DNA of 32,536 nucleotides. Source: a phage. Shown here piece after piece: positions 8,402 to 27,509 of this stretch (positions within the stretch are counted from its first letter, which is position 1; each line of letters begins with the position of its first letter). The stretch is from the NCBI GenBank assembly GCA_012925625.1, contig GCA_012925625.1_3625.1; one strand, written 5' to 3'. Below the pieces are notes generated by a model. The model did not search any database. It worked only from the letters and a program-made list of their open reading frames with translations, and was not told where the DNA came from. Position numbers and translations under genes: made by a program.

Positions 8402-8634
8402 CTCTTCAGGCCTGTGTGGGAAAAGCCAACCTCTCCGGCGGCGGGGAGGGGTTTGTCAGGAAAATTGCAGGTCAATTAAAAAATTTACGGGGTATATGAA
8501 GCGCTCTTCAGATAAGGCATGTATTATGGGATGAAACCCTCTTCAGGCAATGATATTTGTGGGTGTGATATTTGCTGGAAAGCCAGATATGACGGGACTC
8601 CCGGCGGGGCAGGGGTAGTACAGACAGGGAAAAT
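8402..8634. repeat. duplicated G-rich element: copy A 8402-8464, copy B 8540-8634
   Basis: Both copies run CTTCAGG...GTGGG...AAAGCC...CTCC(C)GGCGG(C)GGGG(C)AGGGG...CAGG(G)AAAAT in the same order. Confidence 0.55.
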
Positions 8635-9312
8635 ATGGAGGATGTGGTTGGGTAAATTGATCAGGCAGGTAGAGTATGGAATATGTTACAGGTATGTTAA
8701 ATAGGGAGGCTGAATATCTGTAGGATTTGTGTGTAAAATCAAAGACTTAAGTGGTGTTGTGGTATTTTCTATAAATAATTCAAGTTTAATAGGTAATATT
8801 TGTCTCTATCCGCTTTGTGTGGTAAACAAATTCAGATGGTGTTGGTTTACAAGTGTATACATAATATACAAATTAAAGATACAAGAAACCCCCCCTCCCC
8901 CTTCGGCTACCATTCACCTTTTCCTCTGACTGGTACTTAAACACTTATTCAGACTCTTCAGGTTATCACCCATATATCATATGGCAGTGACTGGTGTCCT
9001 CCGGCCCCTCTTTCGTCACCCGTCCGCTTCGCCATGCTAATGCCATAGCCAATGGTTCGGTTGTTCACCCTGTTCACTCAGGTGTATCTCCATACCCCTT
9101 CAAACCGAAGAGAACAGAAAACCCGAATTACTCGGTAAAAGAAAAGAGAAGAACTTAATTTTATCAGGATAGGCAAGAATGTCAAGGCATGACTGCTCAC
9201 TAAACAAGCAAACAGTCATGTGTGGGAGGTAAGTGATTGTGGTGGTGGGAAATTTAGTTGAAAGATGTGTTATAGGTGCTTCCAGCACTTTAGCCGGGCA
9301 GCTAATTGTGTG

Positions 9313-9528
9313 TCAGTCCAGCGGTTCATCCTCTACTTCACTGAAATCAATGTTCATGGTCTCTTCCCAACCATCGATCTCAGCACAAGAGTGGAGTTCT
9401 TTAGGGTTTACTCCCAAAGCCTCAGCAACAGAGTCTATATTTAACACCTCTGGCAGGTATGTTTCATCGAATTCAAGGTAAATCAGGCCACGAGTGTTGT
9501 CAGCTCCACCAAATATTTCTATCTTCAT
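9313..9528 (-). CDS. hypothetical acidic protein (71 aa), last gene of the minus-strand unit
   Basis: ORF with RBS GAGGAG upstream of ATG at 9528. Confidence 0.55.
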   Translation of the reverse strand: MKIEIFGGADNTRGLIYLEFDETYLPEVLNIDSVAEALGVNPKELHSCAEIDGWEETMNIDFSEVEDEPLD

Positions 9529-9649
9529 GAAATCTCCTCTGGAAATGAGAGTGTGAACAGGGTTTTATACGTTCCAATGCACTGGAATTATACACGTTTG
9601 CCTCTTCAGGCCATGCTTTAGCATGAGGAACCTGTGTGGGCTCGGTGCT

Positions 9650-9862
9650 TCATAGTCTGCCACCTCTGAACTCTTCGTGCTCAGGCATAATGGAGAACCA
9701 GATGTCTACGATGTCTTCCCACGTTAGGTCATCAGCCTCAGGATCTACCTGGAGCGAAGATGGAGAATCTTCAGAATCGAAGTTTTCCTCTTTCACTGGC
9801 TCAGACAATGGACATATGGTCACTCCTTCGGATGTCTCTTCAGGTGCATGCGTGTTGATCAT
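9650..9862 (-). CDS. hypothetical acidic protein (70 aa)
   Basis: ORF in track; ATGA overlap with the upstream small ORF. Confidence 0.5.
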   Translation of the reverse strand: MINTHAPEETSEGVTICPLSEPVKEENFDSEDSPSSLQVDPEADDLTWEDIVDIWFSIMPEHEEFRGGRL

Positions 9863-9948
9863 GTTCCACCCGTGAGTATTCCGGCAACAGCCGCTATGGA
9901 CGTAATGATCATCAGGATCACTACTAAAACTTCGGACAATGTTCTCAT
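9859..9948 (-). CDS. small hydrophobic peptide (29 aa), not in ORF track
   Basis: MRTLSEVLVVILMIITSIAAVAGILTGGT; directly downstream of the 9981-10009 promoter; weak RBS. Confidence 0.3.
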   Translation of the reverse strand: MRTLSEVLVVILMIITSIAAVAGILTGGT

Positions 9949-9980
9949 TGTGTATTCCATATTCTACAAACTATGTGTGG

Positions 9981-10009
9981 ATACTATCACTGGAGCGGTA
10001 ATGTGTCAA
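9981..10009 (-). promoter_or_regulatory. sigma70-like promoter (minus strand) TTGACA-N17-TAGTAT
   Basis: Reverse complement of 10004-10009 is TTGACA and of 9981-9986 is TAGTAT. Confidence 0.45.
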
Positions 10010-10170
10010 TAGAAACGCCGCGAGGGTTTGGTTAAAATCCGAGCGTATGGTGATTTGGGTCAAAACGGACGTGCGTTCTCGCTACGCTCGAAATATGGAG
10101 TTGTTTGTAGGAAGCTCTTAAACTCTCTGTAACGAGATTATCTGTCCAAGGTATGCAATCGTGCACCAGA

Positions 10171-10197
10171 TAAAGAAAAGGACGCCACAGAGCGTCC
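10171..10197 (-). terminator. intrinsic terminator (minus strand) GGACGC-loop-GCGTCC + TTTTCTTTA
   Basis: Hairpin and T-tract on the minus strand immediately after the 10223 stop. Confidence 0.55.
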
Positions 10198-10222
10198 TAG
10201 GTGTCTTAAATTTGATATTTTG

Positions 10223-10534
10223 CTATACCCATGAGGGCTTATCAAGGTTGGAGTAGCTAAAAGGTGTCAAAAGGTGACTGTCAAAATCTCTCAAACTATC
10301 CAAATCTTTTTCCTCGTCCTGACACCATCTGTGCCTACATTTATTGTTGTAGTGCATAGAATGCATAGCGTTCTGCAACTTAACAGGCACAATTGATTCA
10401 GGAGTAGTTAGTATTGTTGGGTATGCCAGAACCACCTCAAACAGTGGAAACACATCGAAACTAAAATCTACCTCTGCAGAGGTTGATGGCATGTAGGAGT
10501 ATTTAGCCGTCTTTGTAGACATAATCCACCTCAC
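10223..10534 (-). CDS. hypothetical protein (103 aa)
   Basis: ORF; start overlaps upstream stop (ATGA-type coupling). Confidence 0.55.
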   Translation of the reverse strand: MRWIMSTKTAKYSYMPSTSAEVDFSFDVFPLFEVVLAYPTILTTPESIVPVKLQNAMHSMHYNNKCRHRWCQDEEKDLDSLRDFDSHLLTPFSYSNLDKPSWV

Positions 10535-10857
10535 ACAGGTTTGATAATACCTTCACCGAATAACTCTTCATATCTAATCTTATCCGGATCCCACTCCTGG
10601 ATAATTTCGAAGACAATATCCAACCCTGGGATAATCACTTCTCCAGTGTCAAGTTTGGCAAGAACAAAACCAGAAGGCTGAATGGTTTCCCAGTTGCGAC
10701 GATTGGAATAGAAGACCTCGAAAATATCACCGACCTTGATCTGTTGATCAAGATGTTCAAGGTTCTCTTTCATGTAGACGCAGCGTATTTTTCGTGCAGG
10801 CCATAGACCACCTGCATCGCGTTCATTCAATTCTTTTACAGTGATCGGTATACTCAT
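10531..10857 (-). CDS. hypothetical protein (108 aa)
   Basis: ORF in track with a plausible RBS. Confidence 0.6.
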   Translation of the reverse strand: MSIPITVKELNERDAGGLWPARKIRCVYMKENLEHLDQQIKVGDIFEVFYSNRRNWETIQPSGFVLAKLDTGEVIIPGLDIVFEIIQEWDPDKIRYEELFGEGIIKPV

Positions 10858-10877
10858 CTCAAATCTCCTTCATAGAT

Positions 10878-10903
10878 AGTAAAAAGAGGGGCCCAAGCCC
10901 CTC
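10878..10903 (-). terminator. intrinsic terminator (minus strand) GAGGGGC-ttgg-GCCCCTC + TTTTTAC
   Basis: 7-bp GC stem and T-tract after the 10913 stop. Confidence 0.55.
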
Positions 10904-10912
10904 TCTTTGTCA

Positions 10913-11218
10913 TTATTCTACAGAGCGTTTGAACAGAATGTCTGCCTCTGACATGTGCTCAACCTCTTCTTCGATTTTAGCTCGACGTTTTTCAGCCTCA
11001 TATCGAATATCGAACTCGGTAGCCACCAGAGATTTGATGAATTTAGGAGAATACAGATGATCCTGCTTCTCAACAAGAATGATATCCTTGATGGCATCTT
11101 TCAGATCTTTAATCTGAAGTTGGAGTTCCACCAGTTCTTCGATTGTTTTGCGAAGGCGATCACGCTCTGCAGTGTCAGAAGGAAGAGAGGTGAACAGTTC
11201 AACTTTAGATTTAGCCAT
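10913..11218 (-). CDS. hypothetical coiled-coil protein (101 aa)
   Basis: RBS AAGGAG upstream; charged heptad-like sequence. Confidence 0.6.
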   Translation of the reverse strand: MAKSKVELFTSLPSDTAERDRLRKTIEELVELQLQIKDLKDAIKDIILVEKQDHLYSPKFIKSLVATEFDIRYEAEKRRAKIEEEVEHMSEADILFKRSVE

Positions 11219-11246
11219 AGTAAGAGTCTCCTTATGTTGTTTTAAA

Positions 11247-14808: not shown

Positions 14809-15129
14809 TCATTCTCCAAAGTCAATCTTTACTTTGCCTTTCCCCTTACCTTTCTTTCCACCGCATTTAGCCAGCTGACGTGCTGCAACATCTACCATAC
14901 GGTCAGTTGCCTCGTAAGCATCACTGCCTTTAGCCTTGGCAATAACTTCTTTTCCAGAATTGTCAAAAATGAACGCCATAACTTCCTGGTGATCATTTTC
15001 AACTTTTACACTCACACGTGCATAGTTAACAGAGGGATGTAAACGCTCCAGCTTGGACATTTTGCGGGAAATAAAAGATACCATACCTTCTGTGATTTCT
15101 ACATTGTTGCCAGTGATTTCAATTTGCAT
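14809..15129 (-). CDS. hpf: ribosome hibernation promoting factor / RaiA (S30AE family) homologue with Lys/Gly-rich C-terminal tail
   Basis: N-terminus MQIEITGNNVEITEGM...KLERL...VSVKVE...DAYEATDRMVDVAARQLAK matches the recalled E. coli HPF pattern MQLNITGNNVEITEAL...KLEQYF...VVLKVE...DMYAAIDGLIDKLARQL; RBS AAGGAA. Confidence 0.8.
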   Translation of the reverse strand: MQIEITGNNVEITEGMVSFISRKMSKLERLHPSVNYARVSVKVENDHQEVMAFIFDNSGKEVIAKAKGSDAYEATDRMVDVAARQLAKCGGKKGKGKGKVKIDFGE

Positions 15130-20735: not shown

Positions 20736-21020
20736 CTACCAGGTTACTGTCAAGTAGGCAACCGTGTTATTTTTCTCTGGAGAGATGCCAACAACATCTA
20801 CCTGCAGACCTCCTGCCCTCAAATCCCCAACAATATGCGGGAAGTAATCTGAGAGATGTGAGGGTAGATTTATCGAAAATCCGCATCCCAGAAAGCCTGC
20901 TAACGCTTTATTTTGTATCTCCCCTACAATCGCATCATAAATGGAGTTAAGCTCGTCAGGGAGCGTTACAGGACGTTTTAGCGCTAACTGGTGCAACTTG
21001 TCCTTAGCACTCATTTTCAT
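20736..21020 (-). CDS. hypothetical protein (94 aa)
   Basis: Start placed at internal ATG 21020, which forms an ATGA overlap with the methyltransferase stop. Confidence 0.5.
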   Translation of the reverse strand: MKMSAKDKLHQLALKRPVTLPDELNSIYDAIVGEIQNKALAGFLGCGFSINLPSHLSDYFPHIVGDLRAGGLQVDVVGISPEKNNTVAYLTVTW

Positions 21021-21550
21021 TTCAAATCTGCCTCTGGTGGTGCCAACCACATAAATGGCGGCAAGTCTAGACGGTTTTTCTTGTCCCATACAAAATATGC
21101 ATATGCCTGACCATCCGTTCTACCATTGGATTGGAATGACGGGCGCTTAGATATTGTGATCACAGTGGTAGGTGCATTATCAAGCCACCATTCAAATCTG
21201 GCCTTGCTTTCCAGAAAATTAAGACGCAAAAGCATAATAACTACGTCGGCATCTTTCAACGCCTTGTCCACAAACTCACGAGCCAGACTGTATGGTGGGT
21301 TGGTGATAATACAGTCAACATGGTTGTATTCTGTATTCAGATAGTCAACACCTTCTTGGATTTCTCCCCATGCAGATCCTAACGGCATACGGGAGTAGAA
21401 CACACCTGAGGCACTATTCCTGCAAGGCTCTAAGTAGGTCCAGTCTTCTGGGAACGGAATAAGGTCATACAGCCCTTCTGCACACCACTCCGGTGTTACA
21501 TACTCATCGTAGGCGTTACGTTGTTCATCAGGTTTTCTAGCACAAGTCAT
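21017..21550 (-). CDS. putative small DNA N6-adenine (or N4-cytosine) methyltransferase
   Basis: Catalytic motif IV CIITNPPY (D/N-P-P-Y) preceded by a possible SAM-binding stretch LEPCRNSASG; RBS GGAG. Confidence 0.55.
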   Translation of the reverse strand: MTCARKPDEQRNAYDEYVTPEWCAEGLYDLIPFPEDWTYLEPCRNSASGVFYSRMPLGSAWGEIQEGVDYLNTEYNHVDCIITNPPYSLAREFVDKALKDADVVIMLLRLNFLESKARFEWWLDNAPTTVITISKRPSFQSNGRTDGQAYAYFVWDKKNRLDLPPFMWLAPPEADLK

Positions 21551-21567
21551 GCAAATCTCCAGATCAT

Positions 21568-21596
21568 AAAAGCCCTCCGAAGAGGGCTTTAGAATT
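21568..21596 (-). terminator. UUCG-tetraloop hairpin AAAGCCCUC-UUCG-GAGGGCUUU (minus-strand RNA) after the ClpP-like gene
   Basis: 9-bp stem with UUCG loop read on the minus strand; only a short U-run follows. Confidence 0.4.
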
Positions 21597-21601
21597 AATG
21601 T

Positions 21602-22651
21602 TTAAGCTTCTTCGACAATTCCTGCACCCAGGATTTTTTCATTGAGCTCTTTTGCTGTTTTAATAATATTGTCCACCAGACGCTTGCGCGTCTTATCTTT
21701 CACCTTAACCTCTTCACCGCCGTTCAGAGTAGTCTTCAATTGAGACAGAATATCCTGAAGTTCAACGACAGAGAATCTCTGCAGATCTTCTGAAGTAATC
21801 TCACTCAGGGCAATTCTGACAGTCTCGCCACTTTCCATCTGCAGATTCAGGAACACAGTGTGAACATCACCTTTCGAACCACCCGCTTTTGCAGATTCAA
21901 CAGCATGAACTAACTCATCTAAAGATGTGCACTGGTGAATCTCCGGAAGACCTGCTTCACCTAACACGCCTTCTTCATCACCTTTTGCCAAAAGCTTTTT
22001 CGGTTTTTGTCCGTTCTGGATGCGTTGTATGTTGCCTTCATCCAGAATAATAGCTCCAGTGCGTGCTGCCAGCTCTTCTCCGTCCAACCACACTTCGCCA
22101 CCAGCTGTGATGGATGCGATCTCATCTTCTGTCAGCACCCCACCGTAGTATTTTTCGATCAGGCGTTCAAAACGTTTTTTCCAGTAGCTGACCTGAGTAT
22201 TCATGTTCACACCGTTACCATAAGTGCCACCTTGATAGTAGTGGAACATAAACTCTGTGTCCGGAGCCACAGTACGTTCTTTACAGCCAAGCCATAAGAT
22301 TGTTCCAGCAGAGCAGCACATCCCTTCAGCATGTGCAACAACGCTTGCCTGAGACTCGCGGAATGCCTGCAGATAAGCCATTGCAATGTGCACGCAACCC
22401 CCAGGACTATTGATGATCACCCGAATGCTTTCTTCCGGCTGAGCCATACGGATCGTCTGCAGACGAGACATATGATCTTGTAAGTCTTCCAAATCGTCGA
22501 TATAAAGAACGTGGTCAACAACAGGTGTTGGGTAGCTGTATGTTTCCATAATACCACCCGGCATACCAAACATTTTATTACTCATAGGTTCGAAACCGTT
22601 CTGTTTTTCTTTCATGCCGTGTACCATGGTGCTGCGAGGTGTTAAATTCAT
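21602..22651 (-). CDS. ClpP/S14-family serine peptidase-like protein with ~150-aa C-terminal extension
   Basis: VIINSPGGCV and GMCCSAGT resemble ClpP INSPGG and G-x-A-A-S-M-G (active Ser aligned); RBS AAGGA. Confidence 0.55.
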   Translation of the reverse strand: MNLTPRSTMVHGMKEKQNGFEPMSNKMFGMPGGIMETYSYPTPVVDHVLYIDDLEDLQDHMSRLQTIRMAQPEESIRVIINSPGGCVHIAMAYLQAFRESQASVVAHAEGMCCSAGTILWLGCKERTVAPDTEFMFHYYQGGTYGNGVNMNTQVSYWKKRFERLIEKYYGGVLTEDEIASITAGGEVWLDGEELAARTGAIILDEGNIQRIQNGQKPKKLLAKGDEEGVLGEAGLPEIHQCTSLDELVHAVESAKAGGSKGDVHTVFLNLQMESGETVRIALSEITSEDLQRFSVVELQDILSQLKTTLNGGEEVKVKDKTRKRLVDNIIKTAKELNEKILGAGIVEEA

Positions 22652-22711
22652 GAGAAATCCTTAATATTGGAAGTTGAAAGCTATTTATTTAAACCTGATT
22701 CACATTTACCT

Positions 22712-23023
22712 TTATTTAGCAATCACTAGGGAATACTTACGATTGTCAGAAGCATCACAGCTCAATGATTGCCAGTCTACCACATACCACGTATCATTGT
22801 CAACAATTACTTTATCGCCTGTTCTGTAGCAGGTGCTGCTTTCAATAATCCGAGACTCGATAAAGAATCTGTGTCGGCGCTCACGTAGCAACGCTAAGTT
22901 GATTATATTACCACCACTGTCCTTGATCCACACATTCTTGGATCCTTTATTTGCCAAAATTGTCTCGCCGTTATAGACAAACAGGCAGTATATTTTATTC
23001 AGTCTCTCTTGTATTGTAGCCAT
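22712..23023 (-). CDS. hypothetical protein (103 aa)
   Basis: ORF in track; RBS GAAGGAGATA; downstream of the 23054-23082 promoter. Confidence 0.55.
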   Translation of the reverse strand: MATIQERLNKIYCLFVYNGETILANKGSKNVWIKDSGGNIINLALLRERRHRFFIESRIIESSTCYRTGDKVIVDNDTWYVVDWQSLSCDASDNRKYSLVIAK

Positions 23024-23053
23024 ACTATCTCCTTCTACTTGTCTTGTCCGATA

Positions 23054-23082
23054 ATAATATCTAAATCTTACCTGTTTGTCAA
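23054..23082 (-). promoter_or_regulatory. sigma70-like promoter (minus strand) TTGACA-N17-TATTAT
   Basis: Reverse complement gives TTGACA then 17 nt then TATTAT; preceded by hairpin AGGGTGG-ttatt-CCACCCT at 23102-23120. Confidence 0.5.
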
Positions 23083-23126
23083 CAACTGTTTTAGATATTT
23101 AAGGGTGGAATAACCACCCTTCTGTA

Positions 23127-23915
23127 TTACTCGGAAACAGGGGTCCAAATATGATTTGCACGATCCTCGATAAGATTGAGTGCAATCTGACGACCCAACC
23201 CGGAACGAACGACATCATCTGGACTATCAAAGCTGATCATTCCAACCTCAGGATCTGGATGGCGAGTAAAGAAATCCGTCACCCATGCAAGGCCAGATTT
23301 ACCAGGGATGTCACGTTGGCTATTATCACCCATAATTACAAGGGTGGCTTGATCAGAGATCCTTGTGATAATTGACAACATTTCTTCAGGGTTAGTTTGC
23401 TGTGCCTCGTCAATCAGGACAAAGCATCGCTCATCGAAACTACGACCACGAATGCTTTCAACTTCACAAATCTCGATACGACTGTTCTGACCGTCTCCCA
23501 GCATTGCGGCAAAAGCACCTTTGCCAACACGGCGACAAATCGTGTCCATCATGCTTCGAAGATAGGGCCACAGTTTCTGCATTGCATTTCCAGGTTTAAA
23601 TCCTGAAGTCTTTCCTGTCTGAACGTAAGGGCGTGCAACAATGATCTTATCAATCTCGTTCTTACGCAGAAGATCACCTGCATATGCAGATGCCATGAAC
23701 GTCTTACCAGACCCAAACACACCGTTTACAATAATAATCTTACGTGACCCTAGATAATCAAGATACTTTTGCTGCTTCTTGTTCATTGGTCGGAGAGCTG
23801 GAGCGGTGTGCTCTCTTTCGTCAGCAAATTTCTCAGCAGCCTTACGCAGGCGATCAGATTTTCGAGCCTCTCTAGCTTCATCACGCATGCGTTTTGTTTC
23901 TTTAGCTCGACCCAT
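23127..23915 (-). CDS. phoH: PhoH-family ATPase
   Basis: Walker A GVFGSGKT, Walker B-like VLIDEAQ, and typical PhoH length. Confidence 0.85.
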   Translation of the reverse strand: MGRAKETKRMRDEAREARKSDRLRKAAEKFADEREHTAPALRPMNKKQQKYLDYLGSRKIIIVNGVFGSGKTFMASAYAGDLLRKNEIDKIIVARPYVQTGKTSGFKPGNAMQKLWPYLRSMMDTICRRVGKGAFAAMLGDGQNSRIEICEVESIRGRSFDERCFVLIDEAQQTNPEEMLSIITRISDQATLVIMGDNSQRDIPGKSGLAWVTDFFTRHPDPEVGMISFDSPDDVVRSGLGRQIALNLIEDRANHIWTPVSE

Positions 23916-24445: not shown

Positions 24446-24475
24446 ATTATACCTATCTGAACAAAGCTTTGTCAA
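24446..24475 (-). promoter_or_regulatory. consensus sigma70 promoter (minus strand) TTGACA-N18-TATAAT
   Basis: Reverse complement of 24470-24475 is TTGACA and of 24446-24451 is TATAAT. Confidence 0.55.
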
Positions 24476-25128: not shown

Positions 25129-26400
25129 TCAGCAACCACAACTTCCGTAGTGCTTAACCCGTTCTATAACTTCCGCTTGCTTACCTTTATTGTAAGGACG
25201 GGAGTTTGGACTAGACAGGTACCCGGATACACGTCTGATCACACTGATCGTTCCCTCTTCATGGTTTCCACACTCTGGGCATACGAATCCCTTAGCTGTT
25301 GCACTGAACTCACCAGAGAAACCACACTTAAGACATTTATCCACAGGCTGGTTGATACCAAAATACATAATGTGTTTATATCCGAAATCAACAAGAGCTT
25401 CCAAAGCATCTAAGTTGTTTTTCAGATTTGGTGTCTCTACGTATCCGATGTTGCCACCAGAAGAGATCATAGCAAAACCTTCCTCATACTCCCACTTATC
25501 AAAAGGCGAGCTATTGATCCATACTGGCTGATGGAAACTGTTGGTGAGATATTCATGCTCGTGCTTCAACACTTCAGGATATTCACGATCCAGACAGGTT
25601 GCAGCTTTATAGCATAGACTCTCAGAAGGGGTGCCGTACAAGCTAAACGCTAGTCTACTTTCCTTCTTGTATCGCTCACAAGCATCTCTCATGTGCTGAA
25701 GTATTCCAAGAGCTAAAGCCTTGTCACCCTCCCTGCCCAAAATCTGACAGGTTTCATACACACCAATATACCCAATACTGATGGAAGCGTACCCGTCATA
25801 GAAGAGTTTATCAATACTCTCTTCAGGATCCAGGCGAGCAAGAGCGCCTTCACACCACATGATAGGGTTCTGCCCTGCCTTTGTTCCTTTTAGACGGTTA
25901 ACCCTTACAAGGTGAGCCTCGTATGCAAGATCCAGGTATTCGTCAAGAACTGCAAAGAAATCAACACCTTCCGTTTTAGCTTTTGCCGCAATCATTGGCA
26001 GGTTAAGGCTAACAACGCCTAAGTTAAATCTGCCAAGGTATTTCTCCTCTCCTGTTTCCAAGTCATTGTATTTGCTAAGAAAACTCCGGCAACCCATGCT
26101 CGTTACTTTACCATCTGTCGAGCCTGTCACTTTACGATTTAGTGGAACAGAAACAAAGTCAGGATAAATCCGCTCTGCAGAGCATTCCAGAGCTAATCGT
26201 TTCAAATCATAGTTAGGATCTCCAGGGTTCATGTTGACACCCTCTTCTAGGAAGAACAGCACTTTAGGGAACACAGGTGTGATACGTTCTTCACCAAGAC
26301 CCATTTTGTGGACTTTCAAGTAGTTTTTGGTAATCATTCTACCAAATACTGAGGTGTCCAGACCTAAACTTAATGTGATAAAAGGGGTTTGCGGTCCCCA
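25129..26400 (-). CDS. nrdD: anaerobic ribonucleoside-triphosphate reductase, exon 2 (C-terminal part)
   Basis: Glycyl-radical motif RVSGYL, zinc-site CLKCG...CPECG; reading frame stays open upstream of the track ATG to 26400 (WGPQTPFITLSLGLDTS...). Confidence 0.8.
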   Translation of the reverse strand, partial: WGPQTPFITLSLGLDTSVFGRMITKNYLKVHKMGLGEERITPVFPKVLFFLEEGVNMNPGDPNYDLKRLALECSAERIYPDFVSVPLNRKVTGSTDGKVTSMGCRSFLSKYNDLETGEEKYLGRFNLGVVSLNLPMIAAKAKTEGVDFFAVLDEYLDLAYEAHLVRVNRLKGTKAGQNPIMWCEGALARLDPEESIDKLFYDGYASISIGYIGVYETCQILGREGDKALALGILQHMRDACERYKKESRLAFSLYGTPSESLCYKAATCLDREYPEVLKHEHEYLTNSFHQPVWINSSPFDKWEYEEGFAMISSGGNIGYVETPNLKNNLDALEALVDFGYKHIMYFGINQPVDKCLKCGFSGEFSATAKGFVCPECGNHEEGTISVIRRVSGYLSSPNSRPYNKGKQAEVIERVKHYGSCGC

Positions 26401-26648
26401 CCCTTATGTTTCCACAAGGCCAGACTATCTCTTGCCTGAAATCACACCGTGTGATTCTTAATCAGACCTCTGCGTTTCGGAATCTTCCATAATCCCTACA
26501 CCAAAAGGTTAGTCGTTACAACCGCCTCACTCCTTGTGAAGCTAGTCACGGGATTGGCATAGCTTTCGCCTTAGCGTTCCCCGTTAGCCAGCGATCAGCT
26601 GACCCCTCATACTGAGGTTAGCAGAGTTTTAAAACGGCCAGTTTGTTA
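26401..26648 (-). ncRNA. group I self-splicing intron (ORF-less, ~248 nt) interrupting nrdD
   Basis: Minus-strand RNA shows P1 pairing AACGGU with GCCGUU ending in U.G, ACGGGGAAC...AAUCCCGUG (P4/P6), GACUA paired with AAGAGAUAGUCUGG (P7), GAAA-capped P9 hairpin and terminal G; boundaries +/- a few nt. Confidence 0.75.
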
Positions 26649-27509
26649 ACCGTTGACAGAAGTTAACGTATTGATTTGATAGAGCAAAGTCTGCATGCTG
26701 TCAAATACGTCTTTATCTGTCATTTGCATTGCAACAGTCTCAGCATCTGGCAACCAATGTTCCTGGCAAAATTTAAGGTTCTTCTCATAGGTCGCTTCAG
26801 CATACTGTGCCAGATAATGATCAATATGGCTCATAGTCTGACCCCCATATTGAGCACTAGCTACTGCACTAGAGATTTGGCTAAGGATTGTTGTTGCAAC
26901 CCCTATTGACTTCGGCTTACTGACATGGGCGTTACCAATGTTGAATCCGTTTTCCAACATGTCGGGATAATTTACCAAACAACAGTTTGTTAACGGACTG
27001 ATCAAGTAGTCAAGATCATGCACATGGATGAAGCCTTTATTGTGCTCTTCTGAGACACGGTCTGGCAGGATCTGTGTTGATGCAAGATGTTTGCTAAGGA
27101 TTCCTGCAAGCAGGTCACGATGAGTGTGTACATGATTAGTAGGCTTATTTGCGTTTTCTTTTGTAAATTCATCACAAGTTCGATCCAAGAAGCCACTAAT
27201 ATCTGCAAGCAGTTTTCCACCTGCCTCTCTGTTATTATCTCTTGTCTGCCTATATTGGATGTATTCTCTGGCTGCACATTTTAAACCCATATCCATAAGA
27301 GCGTCTTCAACAAGGATATGGATATTTTTTACAGAGATCGTGCACTGATCGGTTGGTAGATTGTTAGCAACAACTTCATTAACCGCACAGGCGATCCGGT
27401 AAGCTTCTTCTTCAGTATGTCCAGACTCAAGTAAGGCGGACTCTGCCGCCTTGATCACCTTAATTCCGTTATAGAACTCTTCTCTACCGTCCCGTTTTAC
27501 AACTTTCAC
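26649..27509 (-). CDS. nrdD: anaerobic ribonucleoside-triphosphate reductase, exon 1 (N-terminal part with ATP-cone)
   Basis: N-terminus MKVVKRDGREEFYNGIKVIKA is ATP-cone-like; frame closes in the intron 3 nt past the proposed 5' splice site. Confidence 0.8.

Follow-up and report, generated by a model that had tools for sequence, protein, structure and literature searches.

What does a ClpP-like serine peptidase do for a phage when its gene lies in a nucleotide-metabolism neighbourhood, away from the capsid genes? The question is raised by an intact open reading frame (ORF) at 21602..22651 on the minus strand of a 32,536-nucleotide stretch of phage DNA (NCBI GenBank assembly GCA_012925625.1, contig GCA_012925625.1_3625.1), the whole of which is referred to here as the window. 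The window is another isolate of Vequintavirus (an rV5-like coliphage), and the gene is already known as an entity, corresponding to rV5 gp122 and to PHROG 5410. Sequence comparison suggests, with about an even chance of being right, that gp122 is an active ClpP-fold serine peptidase (Ser114, His137 and Glu186) that would act independently of host Clp unfoldases and outside capsid maturation. Because the catalytic machinery is kept, the features that bind ClpX/ClpA are apparently gone and the protein is probably not the head protease, the labels 'ATP-dependent Clp protease subunit' and 'prohead protease' are both probably misleading. As a database entry the gene is unremarkable, and the useful output of the analysis is a corrected label for a very widespread phage family.

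Domain layout and family membership

The gene starts with an ATG, which has an AAGGA Shine-Dalgarno sequence 6 nt 5' of it, encodes 349 amino acids (aa) and ends with TAA at 21602-21604. The ClpP-like motifs and the C-terminal extension of ~150 residues described in an earlier note on this DNA are both present: INSPGG occupies residues 80-85, and the G-x-x-x-S-x-G stretch corresponds to G110-M-C-C-S114-A-G116. The note had also remarked on the residues flanking the nucleophile, and Cys-Cys indeed precedes Ser114 where E. coli ClpP has Ala-Ala. The product can be divided into four parts, all encoded on the minus strand. The N-terminal tail, residues 1-44 (22520..22651), is predicted to be disordered, with a predicted local distance difference test score (pLDDT) below 50 for residues 1-37. 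It is followed by the ClpP-fold core and a conserved post-core helix, residues 45-217 (22001..22519; pLDDT 70-93), which were recognized by Foldseek. The ClpP core ends at about residue 200-217, and the ~130-150 residues beyond it comprise a variable linker and a C-terminal module. The linker, residues 218-262 (21866..22000), is largely disordered (pLDDT 36-62 at 221-260) and carries many indels in the alignment of homologues. The module, residues 263-349 (21605..21865), consists of a beta-hairpin, a helix, a loop and a long helix, and was modelled confidently by AlphaFold2 over residues 263-343.

The similarity of the gene product to ClpP is far beyond chance. The peptidase assignment was borne out by a significant match to Pfam CLP_protease (PF00574) over residues 59-168, with 47.7 bits against a gathering cut-off of 20.2 (E = 2.1e-12). 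The match to PHROG 5410 covers residues 24-345 and profile positions 4-322 of 323 (E = 2e-155), and phrog_1827 was also matched (E = 2.6e-40). All of the 110 PDB sequence matches are ClpP chains, and so are the top 50 PDB matches obtained by Foldseek with the AlphaFold2 model (probability 1.00; target-normalised template modelling (TM) score 0.42-0.49). The NCBIfam ClpP equivalog models gave 21-39 bits against cut-offs of 228-361; both TIGR00493 (33.2 vs 308.6 bits) and PRK00277 (38.2 vs 249 bits) were missed. Next in rank to the protein's own PHROGs come head-maturation proteases (phrog_1684 at 8.2e-22, phrog_94, phrog_2976 and phrog_133). The NCBIfam model for this type, NF045542 (Clp_rel_HeadMat), was likewise missed (60.3 bits vs a cut-off of 120), with an E-value of 2.1e-16 that puts it ahead of every cellular ClpP model.

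Compared with cellular ClpP (MEROPS S14; E. coli ClpP, PDB 1TYF), the phage protein has the same fold, Pfam family, nucleophile Ser and base His. The oxyanion/NSPGG loop and the H-x-x-x-G-G substrate-strand motif are preserved, and the handle helix is also found at aligned positions. The differences are an identity of only ~20%, a helix A that is 5 residues shorter, and the addition of the 44-aa disordered N-terminal tail and the C-terminal extension.

The family is widespread. Of 1.84 billion cluster representatives searched exhaustively with a profile, 7,822 proved to be relatives at E <= 0.001, among them 1,814 with E <= 1e-10, and at least 1,435 phage records were matched in one search. 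The protein is 97-100% identical to entries in more than 100 GenBank records, where it appears as 'ClpP-like protease' or 'ATP-dependent protease subunit'. In 2013, rV5 gp122 was listed as a 'ClpP (ATP-dependent) protease subunit' of 349 aa (PMC3606486 Table S3). No difference of substance was found between the window's gene and rV5 gp122, MaxBurger bas54_0171 or the JES2013 'ATP-dependent protease', all of which have 349 aa and the same neighbours, promoter and terminator. More distant members are the short 'Clp protease' proteins of PHROG 1827, such as those of BF23 (ORF45), ICP1, Pakpunavirus, Barbavirus and an N4-like Alteromonas phage, which have the same invariant Ser/His and a non-structural gene placement. 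They score 1e-44 to 1e-75 against phrog_1827 and 1e-17 to 1e-38 against phrog_5410, are mostly 180-230 aa long without the extension, and mostly have Asp at the third triad position.

The window around the gene is 99.9% identical to MaxBurger, and MaxBurger coordinates were applied only near the gene, where ORFs were checked directly. As a whole, the window is a mosaic: identity of at least 99.8% and register with MaxBurger extend only over ~19.5-26.5 kb, and JES2013 matches best overall (97%, first 25 kb).

Catalytic residues and selection

In a MAFFT alignment that included the K-12 ClpP, S114, H137 and E186 of the phage protein correspond to Ser97, His122 and Asp171 of E. coli ClpP; on the minus strand, the three codons lie at 22310-22312 (Ser114), 22241-22243 (His137) and 22094-22096 (Glu186). 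Conservation was counted over the 151 best representatives aligned to the family profile. Ser114 and His137 are 100% conserved, both in these and in a set of 190 sequences, and the G84-G85 pair is invariant across the 151. The acid position is more varied, with Asp in 108 representatives (72%), Glu in 31 (21%), Gln in 8 and Thr in 3. Thus, conservation of a Ser-His-Asp triad, by which the earlier note had proposed to judge the protein, holds for the nucleophile and the base and does not hold strictly for the acid: the canonical Asp is replaced in gp122 by Glu186, which is a conservative replacement for it. Of the two outcomes that the note had named as refuting, loss of the triad and lack of a significant family match, neither was seen. 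Cys113 is invariant within the close family and is found in 36 of the 151 wider representatives, among which Ala is commoner; its spread makes it a lineage trait rather than a family hallmark.

Comparison of gp122 with an IMG/VR homologue (L012) revealed 85 synonymous and 12 non-synonymous differences. The resulting ratio of non-synonymous to synonymous change (pN/pS) was 0.03 in the core and 0.02 in both the linker and the C-terminal module, a crude count from one sequence pair whose direction is unambiguous. The whole gene, including the extension, is under strong purifying selection.

These data bear on the idea that gp122 has no catalytic activity and is kept as a pseudo-protease or degenerate scaffold with only a structural or binding role. 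The change of the canonical Asp to Glu here and to Gln in sister clades, the unusual Cys-Cys before the nucleophile and the scaffold-like look of the long helical C-terminal module could be taken to favour it. However, Asp is the majority state and Glu a conservative substitute, the gene is strongly selected, and no change at Ser114, His137, G84-G85 or the motifs around them was seen in 151 divergent representatives, which is unlike what a dead enzyme would show. This explanation is thus considered extremely unlikely. The suggestion of the earlier note that the protein may be a degenerate scaffold is not supported: strong purifying selection acts across the gene, its catalytic residues are kept, and MaxBurger has a separate scaffold as well as an XkdF-type protease.

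Is gp122 a subunit for host unfoldases?

Most GenBank records carry the label 'ATP-dependent Clp protease proteolytic subunit', which implies that the protein could be a ClpP mimic that diverts ATP-dependent degradation, either by hijacking host ClpX/ClpA or by co-assembling with host ClpP. The ClpP fold with its catalytic residues, as well as the retained handle-region helix and G-G substrate strand, would fit such a role. The docking surface is more informative. Cryo-electron microscopy of ClpAP has shown that the pocket of E. coli ClpP for the IGL loop is built by A52, L48, F49 and F82 from one protomer and by L23, Y60, Y62, I90, M92, F112, L114 and L189 from the next one, and that the C-terminal strand of ClpP contributes to or borders this apical pocket (bioRxiv 10.1101/820209). 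In a sequence alignment at ~20% identity, the pocket positions of gp122 are occupied by M69, R77, I79, E99, H107, E109, T127, A129 and L203, corresponding to the replacements Y60 to R77, Y62 to I79, F82 to E99, I90 to H107, M92 to E109, F112 to T127 and L114 to A129. R77, E99, H107 and E109 are invariant within the close family. Among the 151 representatives, the pocket positions are mostly polar or acidic; the F82 site is hydrophobic in 9% and the M92 site is Glu in 65%.

Changes were also observed at the other elements involved. The axial-loop motif LVPMVIE (ALVPMVIE) has no counterpart in the alignment of gp122 to E. coli ClpP, and the N-terminal tail has in its place a family motif, N-x-F-G-x-P-G-G ... 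Y-S-Y-P. In addition, R170 of E. coli ClpP, which belongs to an Asp/Arg pair, corresponds to Gly185 in gp122. The hydrophobic ClpX/ClpA docking pocket and the N-terminal gating motif have thus apparently been lost, and with the pocket and N-terminal loops replaced, the label 'ATP-dependent' is probably wrong. Hijacking of host ClpX/ClpA is therefore regarded as improbable: 7 of 8 alignable IGF/IGL-pocket positions are non-aromatic, several of them being charged and invariant in the close family, the axial-loop motif is absent from an N-terminus predicted to be disordered, the arginine partner is a glycine, and the NCBIfam ClpP models score far below their cut-offs. Moreover, the C-terminal extension would emerge beside the docking site.

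Genomic position and transcription unit

The order of genes on the minus strand is phoH, a 103-aa ORF, the peptidase gene and a DNA methyltransferase gene, with ribonucleotide reductase genes further upstream. The earlier placement of the gene between phoH and a methyltransferase, away from capsid genes, was therefore correct in outline, yet one small ORF separates it from phoH. The phoH gene (23127..23915, minus strand), encoding a PhoH-like P-loop ATPase (PHROG 170, 3.8e-75), is a recurrent upstream neighbour, and the methyltransferase gene (21017..21550, minus strand; PHROG 799, 5.1e-67) is a conserved downstream one. The 103-aa ORF between phoH and the peptidase gene (22712..23023, minus strand) corresponds to rV5 gp121 and PHROG 5456, and is preceded by a strong ribosome-binding site, AGGAG. 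In Seunavirus EC152 and Certrevirus CR3, ORFs of 102-104 aa with weak similarity to it lie upstream of the peptidase gene. The 103-aa protein gave no Pfam, PDB or PADLOC match, and the ClpP-like protease no PADLOC match.

A consensus scan detected a sigma-70-type promoter (TTGACA-17 nt-TATTAT, 11/12) at 23054..23082 on the minus strand, ahead of the 103-aa ORF; it is the same as rV5 P121. Downstream, a Rho-independent terminator (GCCCTC-TTCG-GAGGGC followed by TTTTAT) is located at 21566..21587 on the same strand, with its hairpin at 21572-21587. It begins 15 nt past the peptidase stop codon, is an exact match where 0 would be expected by chance, and is the same as rV5 t122. Both P121 and t122 (deltaG -14.9 kcal/mol) had been predicted independently in rV5 (Table S4), and the putative late promoters of rV5 have a different motif and were assigned to structural genes (Table S4). 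Judging from these signals, the 103-aa ORF and the protease gene look like a discrete two-gene promoter-to-terminator unit that would be read by host RNA polymerase. Another, perfect sigma-70 promoter (12/12; TTGACA, 18 nt, TATAAT) was observed at 24446-24475 on the minus strand, between nrdG and the small ORFs that precede phoH; it is the same as rV5 P118.

Members of the family (PHROG 1827/5410) are found in early, nucleotide-metabolism or replication regions of all the phages inspected. The order phoH ... Clp ... methyltransferase is common to all Vequintavirinae-like contigs, including CR3 and EC152. ICP1 has ribonucleotide reductase (RNR), phoH, two ORFs and Clp (326 aa), and Barbavirus has phoH, Clp and Dam methylase. 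In an N4-like Alteromonas phage the order is RNR, one ORF and Clp, in T5-like phages it is deoxynucleoside monophosphate kinase, Clp and holin, and in Pakpunavirus Clp lies among small early genes.

This recurrent proximity could indicate that gp122 is functionally coupled to the neighbouring PhoH-like ATPase, which would replace the energy-dependent or targeting function of ClpX/ClpA. In 16 of 17 Vequintavirinae-like IMG/VR loci, phoH lies no more than 2.6 kb upstream on the same strand; the same is true of two further loci (L029 and L030) and of ICP1, CR3 and EC152, and the two genes are directly adjacent in Barbavirus. As a universal neighbour, phoH was rejected: the association holds in Vequintavirinae, ICP1, Barbavirus and one more lineage, and fails in T5-like, N4-like and Pakpunavirus members, with phoH also not nearby in the distant relatives of ~185 aa. 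Furthermore, phoH is outside the promoter-terminator unit of gp122 in the window. The phoH gene is very common in the nucleotide-metabolism blocks of virulent phages, so that co-location may reflect shared module ancestry, and no protease is known to use a PhoH-type ATPase. Functional coupling to PhoH is accordingly thought to be very improbable.

A possible head-protease or virion-associated role

The main rival to the favoured reading is a role linked to the capsid, a possibility raised by the head-maturation families that are nearest beyond the protein's own and by a detection in virions. In the T5-like phage BF23, whose homologue belongs to the gp122 family as do T5-like proteins, ORF45 was found in purified virions at low abundance, with 3 peptides (PMC10644984). 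Its signal was ~4% of that of the prohead protease, or ~25-fold weaker (PMC10644984). It might be proposed that gp122 is an accessory morphogenetic or virion-associated protease, whose C-terminal module targets the procapsid, or that it is a packaged protein. Protease-scaffold fusions in other phages, such as lambda C/Nu3, are precedents for this. ClpP-related head-maturation proteases (NF045542; PHROGs 1684, 94, 2976 and 133) are also phage ClpP-fold enzymes that work without an unfoldase, which would fit the missing docking pocket, and often carry C-terminal scaffold or capsid fusions.

Several observations stand against such a role. Unlike the genes for head-maturation proteases, those of the gp122 type are never next to a portal or capsid gene: in each phage inspected, they lie outside the head module and among nucleotide-metabolism or early genes. 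In MaxBurger, a close relative, the head module lies ~100 kb from the ClpP-like gene. It contains, in this order, the genes for portal, a prohead protease of 139 aa, scaffold, a decoration protein and a major capsid protein of the lambda-E type, and its prohead protease matches Pfam Peptidase_S78_2 (XkdF) with 65 bits against a cut-off of 24. MaxBurger is thus already equipped with a prohead protease and a scaffold. The sigma-70-type promoter of gp122 is unlike the late-promoter motif listed for rV5, and NF045542 is reached with only half of its cut-off score. No protein with the predicted mass of gp122 is listed in the mass spectrometry table of the rV5 virion, which has 19 proteins; as this table is shallow, the negative evidence is weak. 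In BF23, the low signal from few peptides also speaks against such a role. Overall, gp122 is probably not the phage's head protease, and an accessory role in morphogenesis or in the virion appears unlikely, while deserving more weight than the unfoldase-based explanation discussed above. A nested scaffold-like product from an internal start, in the style of lambda C/Nu3, was considered separately and rejected, the module's sole Met not being conserved in the alignment.

The C-terminal module

The module is restricted in distribution. A hidden Markov model (HMM) of the rV5-type module found it complete in ~9 of the 151 representatives and as a partial motif in ~14 more, and tails of at least 100 aa, which are heterogeneous, occur in 35 of the 151. 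No relatives of the module were detectable outside the family, and a search of other viral proteins (BFVD) gave one match, apparently a family member. Two candidate identities among helix-extended-helix domains found no support in sequence-profile comparisons. For an HeH/SAP domain, Pfam HeH (0.077) and SAP (0.094) were each obtained for 1 of 14 members, and for Rho_N, hhalign against the N-terminus of E. coli Rho gave a probability of 1.1%.

A tail of its own, ~130 aa long, is carried by the 326-aa ClpP-like protein of ICP1 (L003 3932-4912, Vibrio phage ICP1_2006_B). Homology of this tail to that of rV5 was rejected, as none was found by BLASTP or with the module HMM. By eye, the end of the ICP1 tail has a similar hairpin and helix-loop-helix, and the two may be convergent or very divergent appendages.

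As the C-terminal strand of ClpP borders the docking pocket, the extension of gp122 would emerge on the unfoldase-binding face. It may be conjectured from this geometry that the C-terminal module is a built-in recruiting or gating module.

Proposed role of gp122 in infection

On the favoured reading, that of an active peptidase independent of host unfoldases and of capsid maturation, gp122 would be transcribed by host RNA polymerase in early or middle infection and would assemble into ClpP-like rings that sequester the Ser-His-Glu sites. Seven flexibly tethered C-terminal modules could then crown the entry pore and take the place of an AAA+ unfoldase, bringing in or letting through particular substrates, or a phage partner for which the 103-aa protein is a candidate. 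Such rings would serve host takeover, by limited proteolysis or by clearing peptides, rather than capsid maturation. The suggestion of the earlier note that gp122 may be a regulatory protease is plausible in this light, the role being a putative one.

Some points weigh against this reading. The Seunavirus and Certrevirus cousins have Gln at position 186, and as Gln is unable to serve as a triad acid, the enzyme may work with a Ser-His dyad or have low activity. The AlphaFold2 model covers a single chain, with a predicted TM-score (pTM) of 0.38. The loss of the docking pocket is read from an alignment at low identity, and the timing of the promoter from a consensus match. The kinship with head-maturation families and the presence of the BF23 homologue in virions have been noted above. 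Finally, literature searches on the family found only annotations, together with the statement 'function currently unknown' for the BF23 homologue.

A broader hypothesis is that these proteins form a widespread class of phage 'takeover' proteases, in which unfoldase-free ClpP-fold rings select host or phage proteins for early destruction via tethered C-terminal modules, the 103-aa protein and possibly the PhoH-like ATPase. This is speculative and, in our estimation, distinctly improbable. If it were true, the targets could include defence or nucleoid-associated proteins, and the class would represent a new protease-partner architecture and give a function to a gene carried by well over a thousand virulent phages with sequenced genomes. 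Apart from this hypothesis, a conserved, strongly selected non-structural protease is of interest in phages of the rV5, T5, ICP1 and PAK_P1 types, among which are several candidates for therapy. If host factors are degraded by gp122, a proteolytic route would be added to the known repertoire of host takeover.

Other features of the window

In addition to the peptidase locus, several features of the window were recorded. Near the strand switch, at ~9300-11220 on the minus strand, the ORFs at 9316-9528, 9653-9862, 10226-10534, 10534-10857 and 10916-11218 have strong PHROG matches, the last of them to phrog_639, a transcriptional regulator. The MaxBurger record has an apparent gene-free gap of 2.5 kb near this part of the window. 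Rather than a real feature, this gap looks like an annotation omission, although register between the two genomes is lost there. No tRNA or Rfam match was found in the ~9300-11220 region.

Between 18 and 25 GenBank records of the MG0656xx series, labelled 'Campylobacter phage' with the host C. jejuni, were matched by window positions 21000-23200 and 8625-11136. These records are unannotated and share 97-99% identity with rV5-like phages of E. coli, and one of them encodes a ClpP-like protein 100% identical to that of the window. Their C. jejuni host labels look doubtful.

The gene for the anaerobic ribonucleotide reductase, nrdD, is split on the minus strand into ORFs at 26646..27509 and 25129..26337, ~300 nt apart. 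At this place, at 26402-26658 on the minus strand, Rfam gave a full-length match to a group I intron (RF00028) with 29.2 bits (E = 2.7e-5), which falls short of the gathering score of 50. The intron-like element in the nrdD of the window has no homing-endonuclease ORF, and MaxBurger carries one at the same site. Lastly, positions 14812-15129 on the minus strand encode a 106-aa homologue of ribosome hibernation/sigma-54 modulation proteins (Ribosomal_S30AE, 56.7 bits vs a cut-off of 23.7), which is so annotated in relatives.

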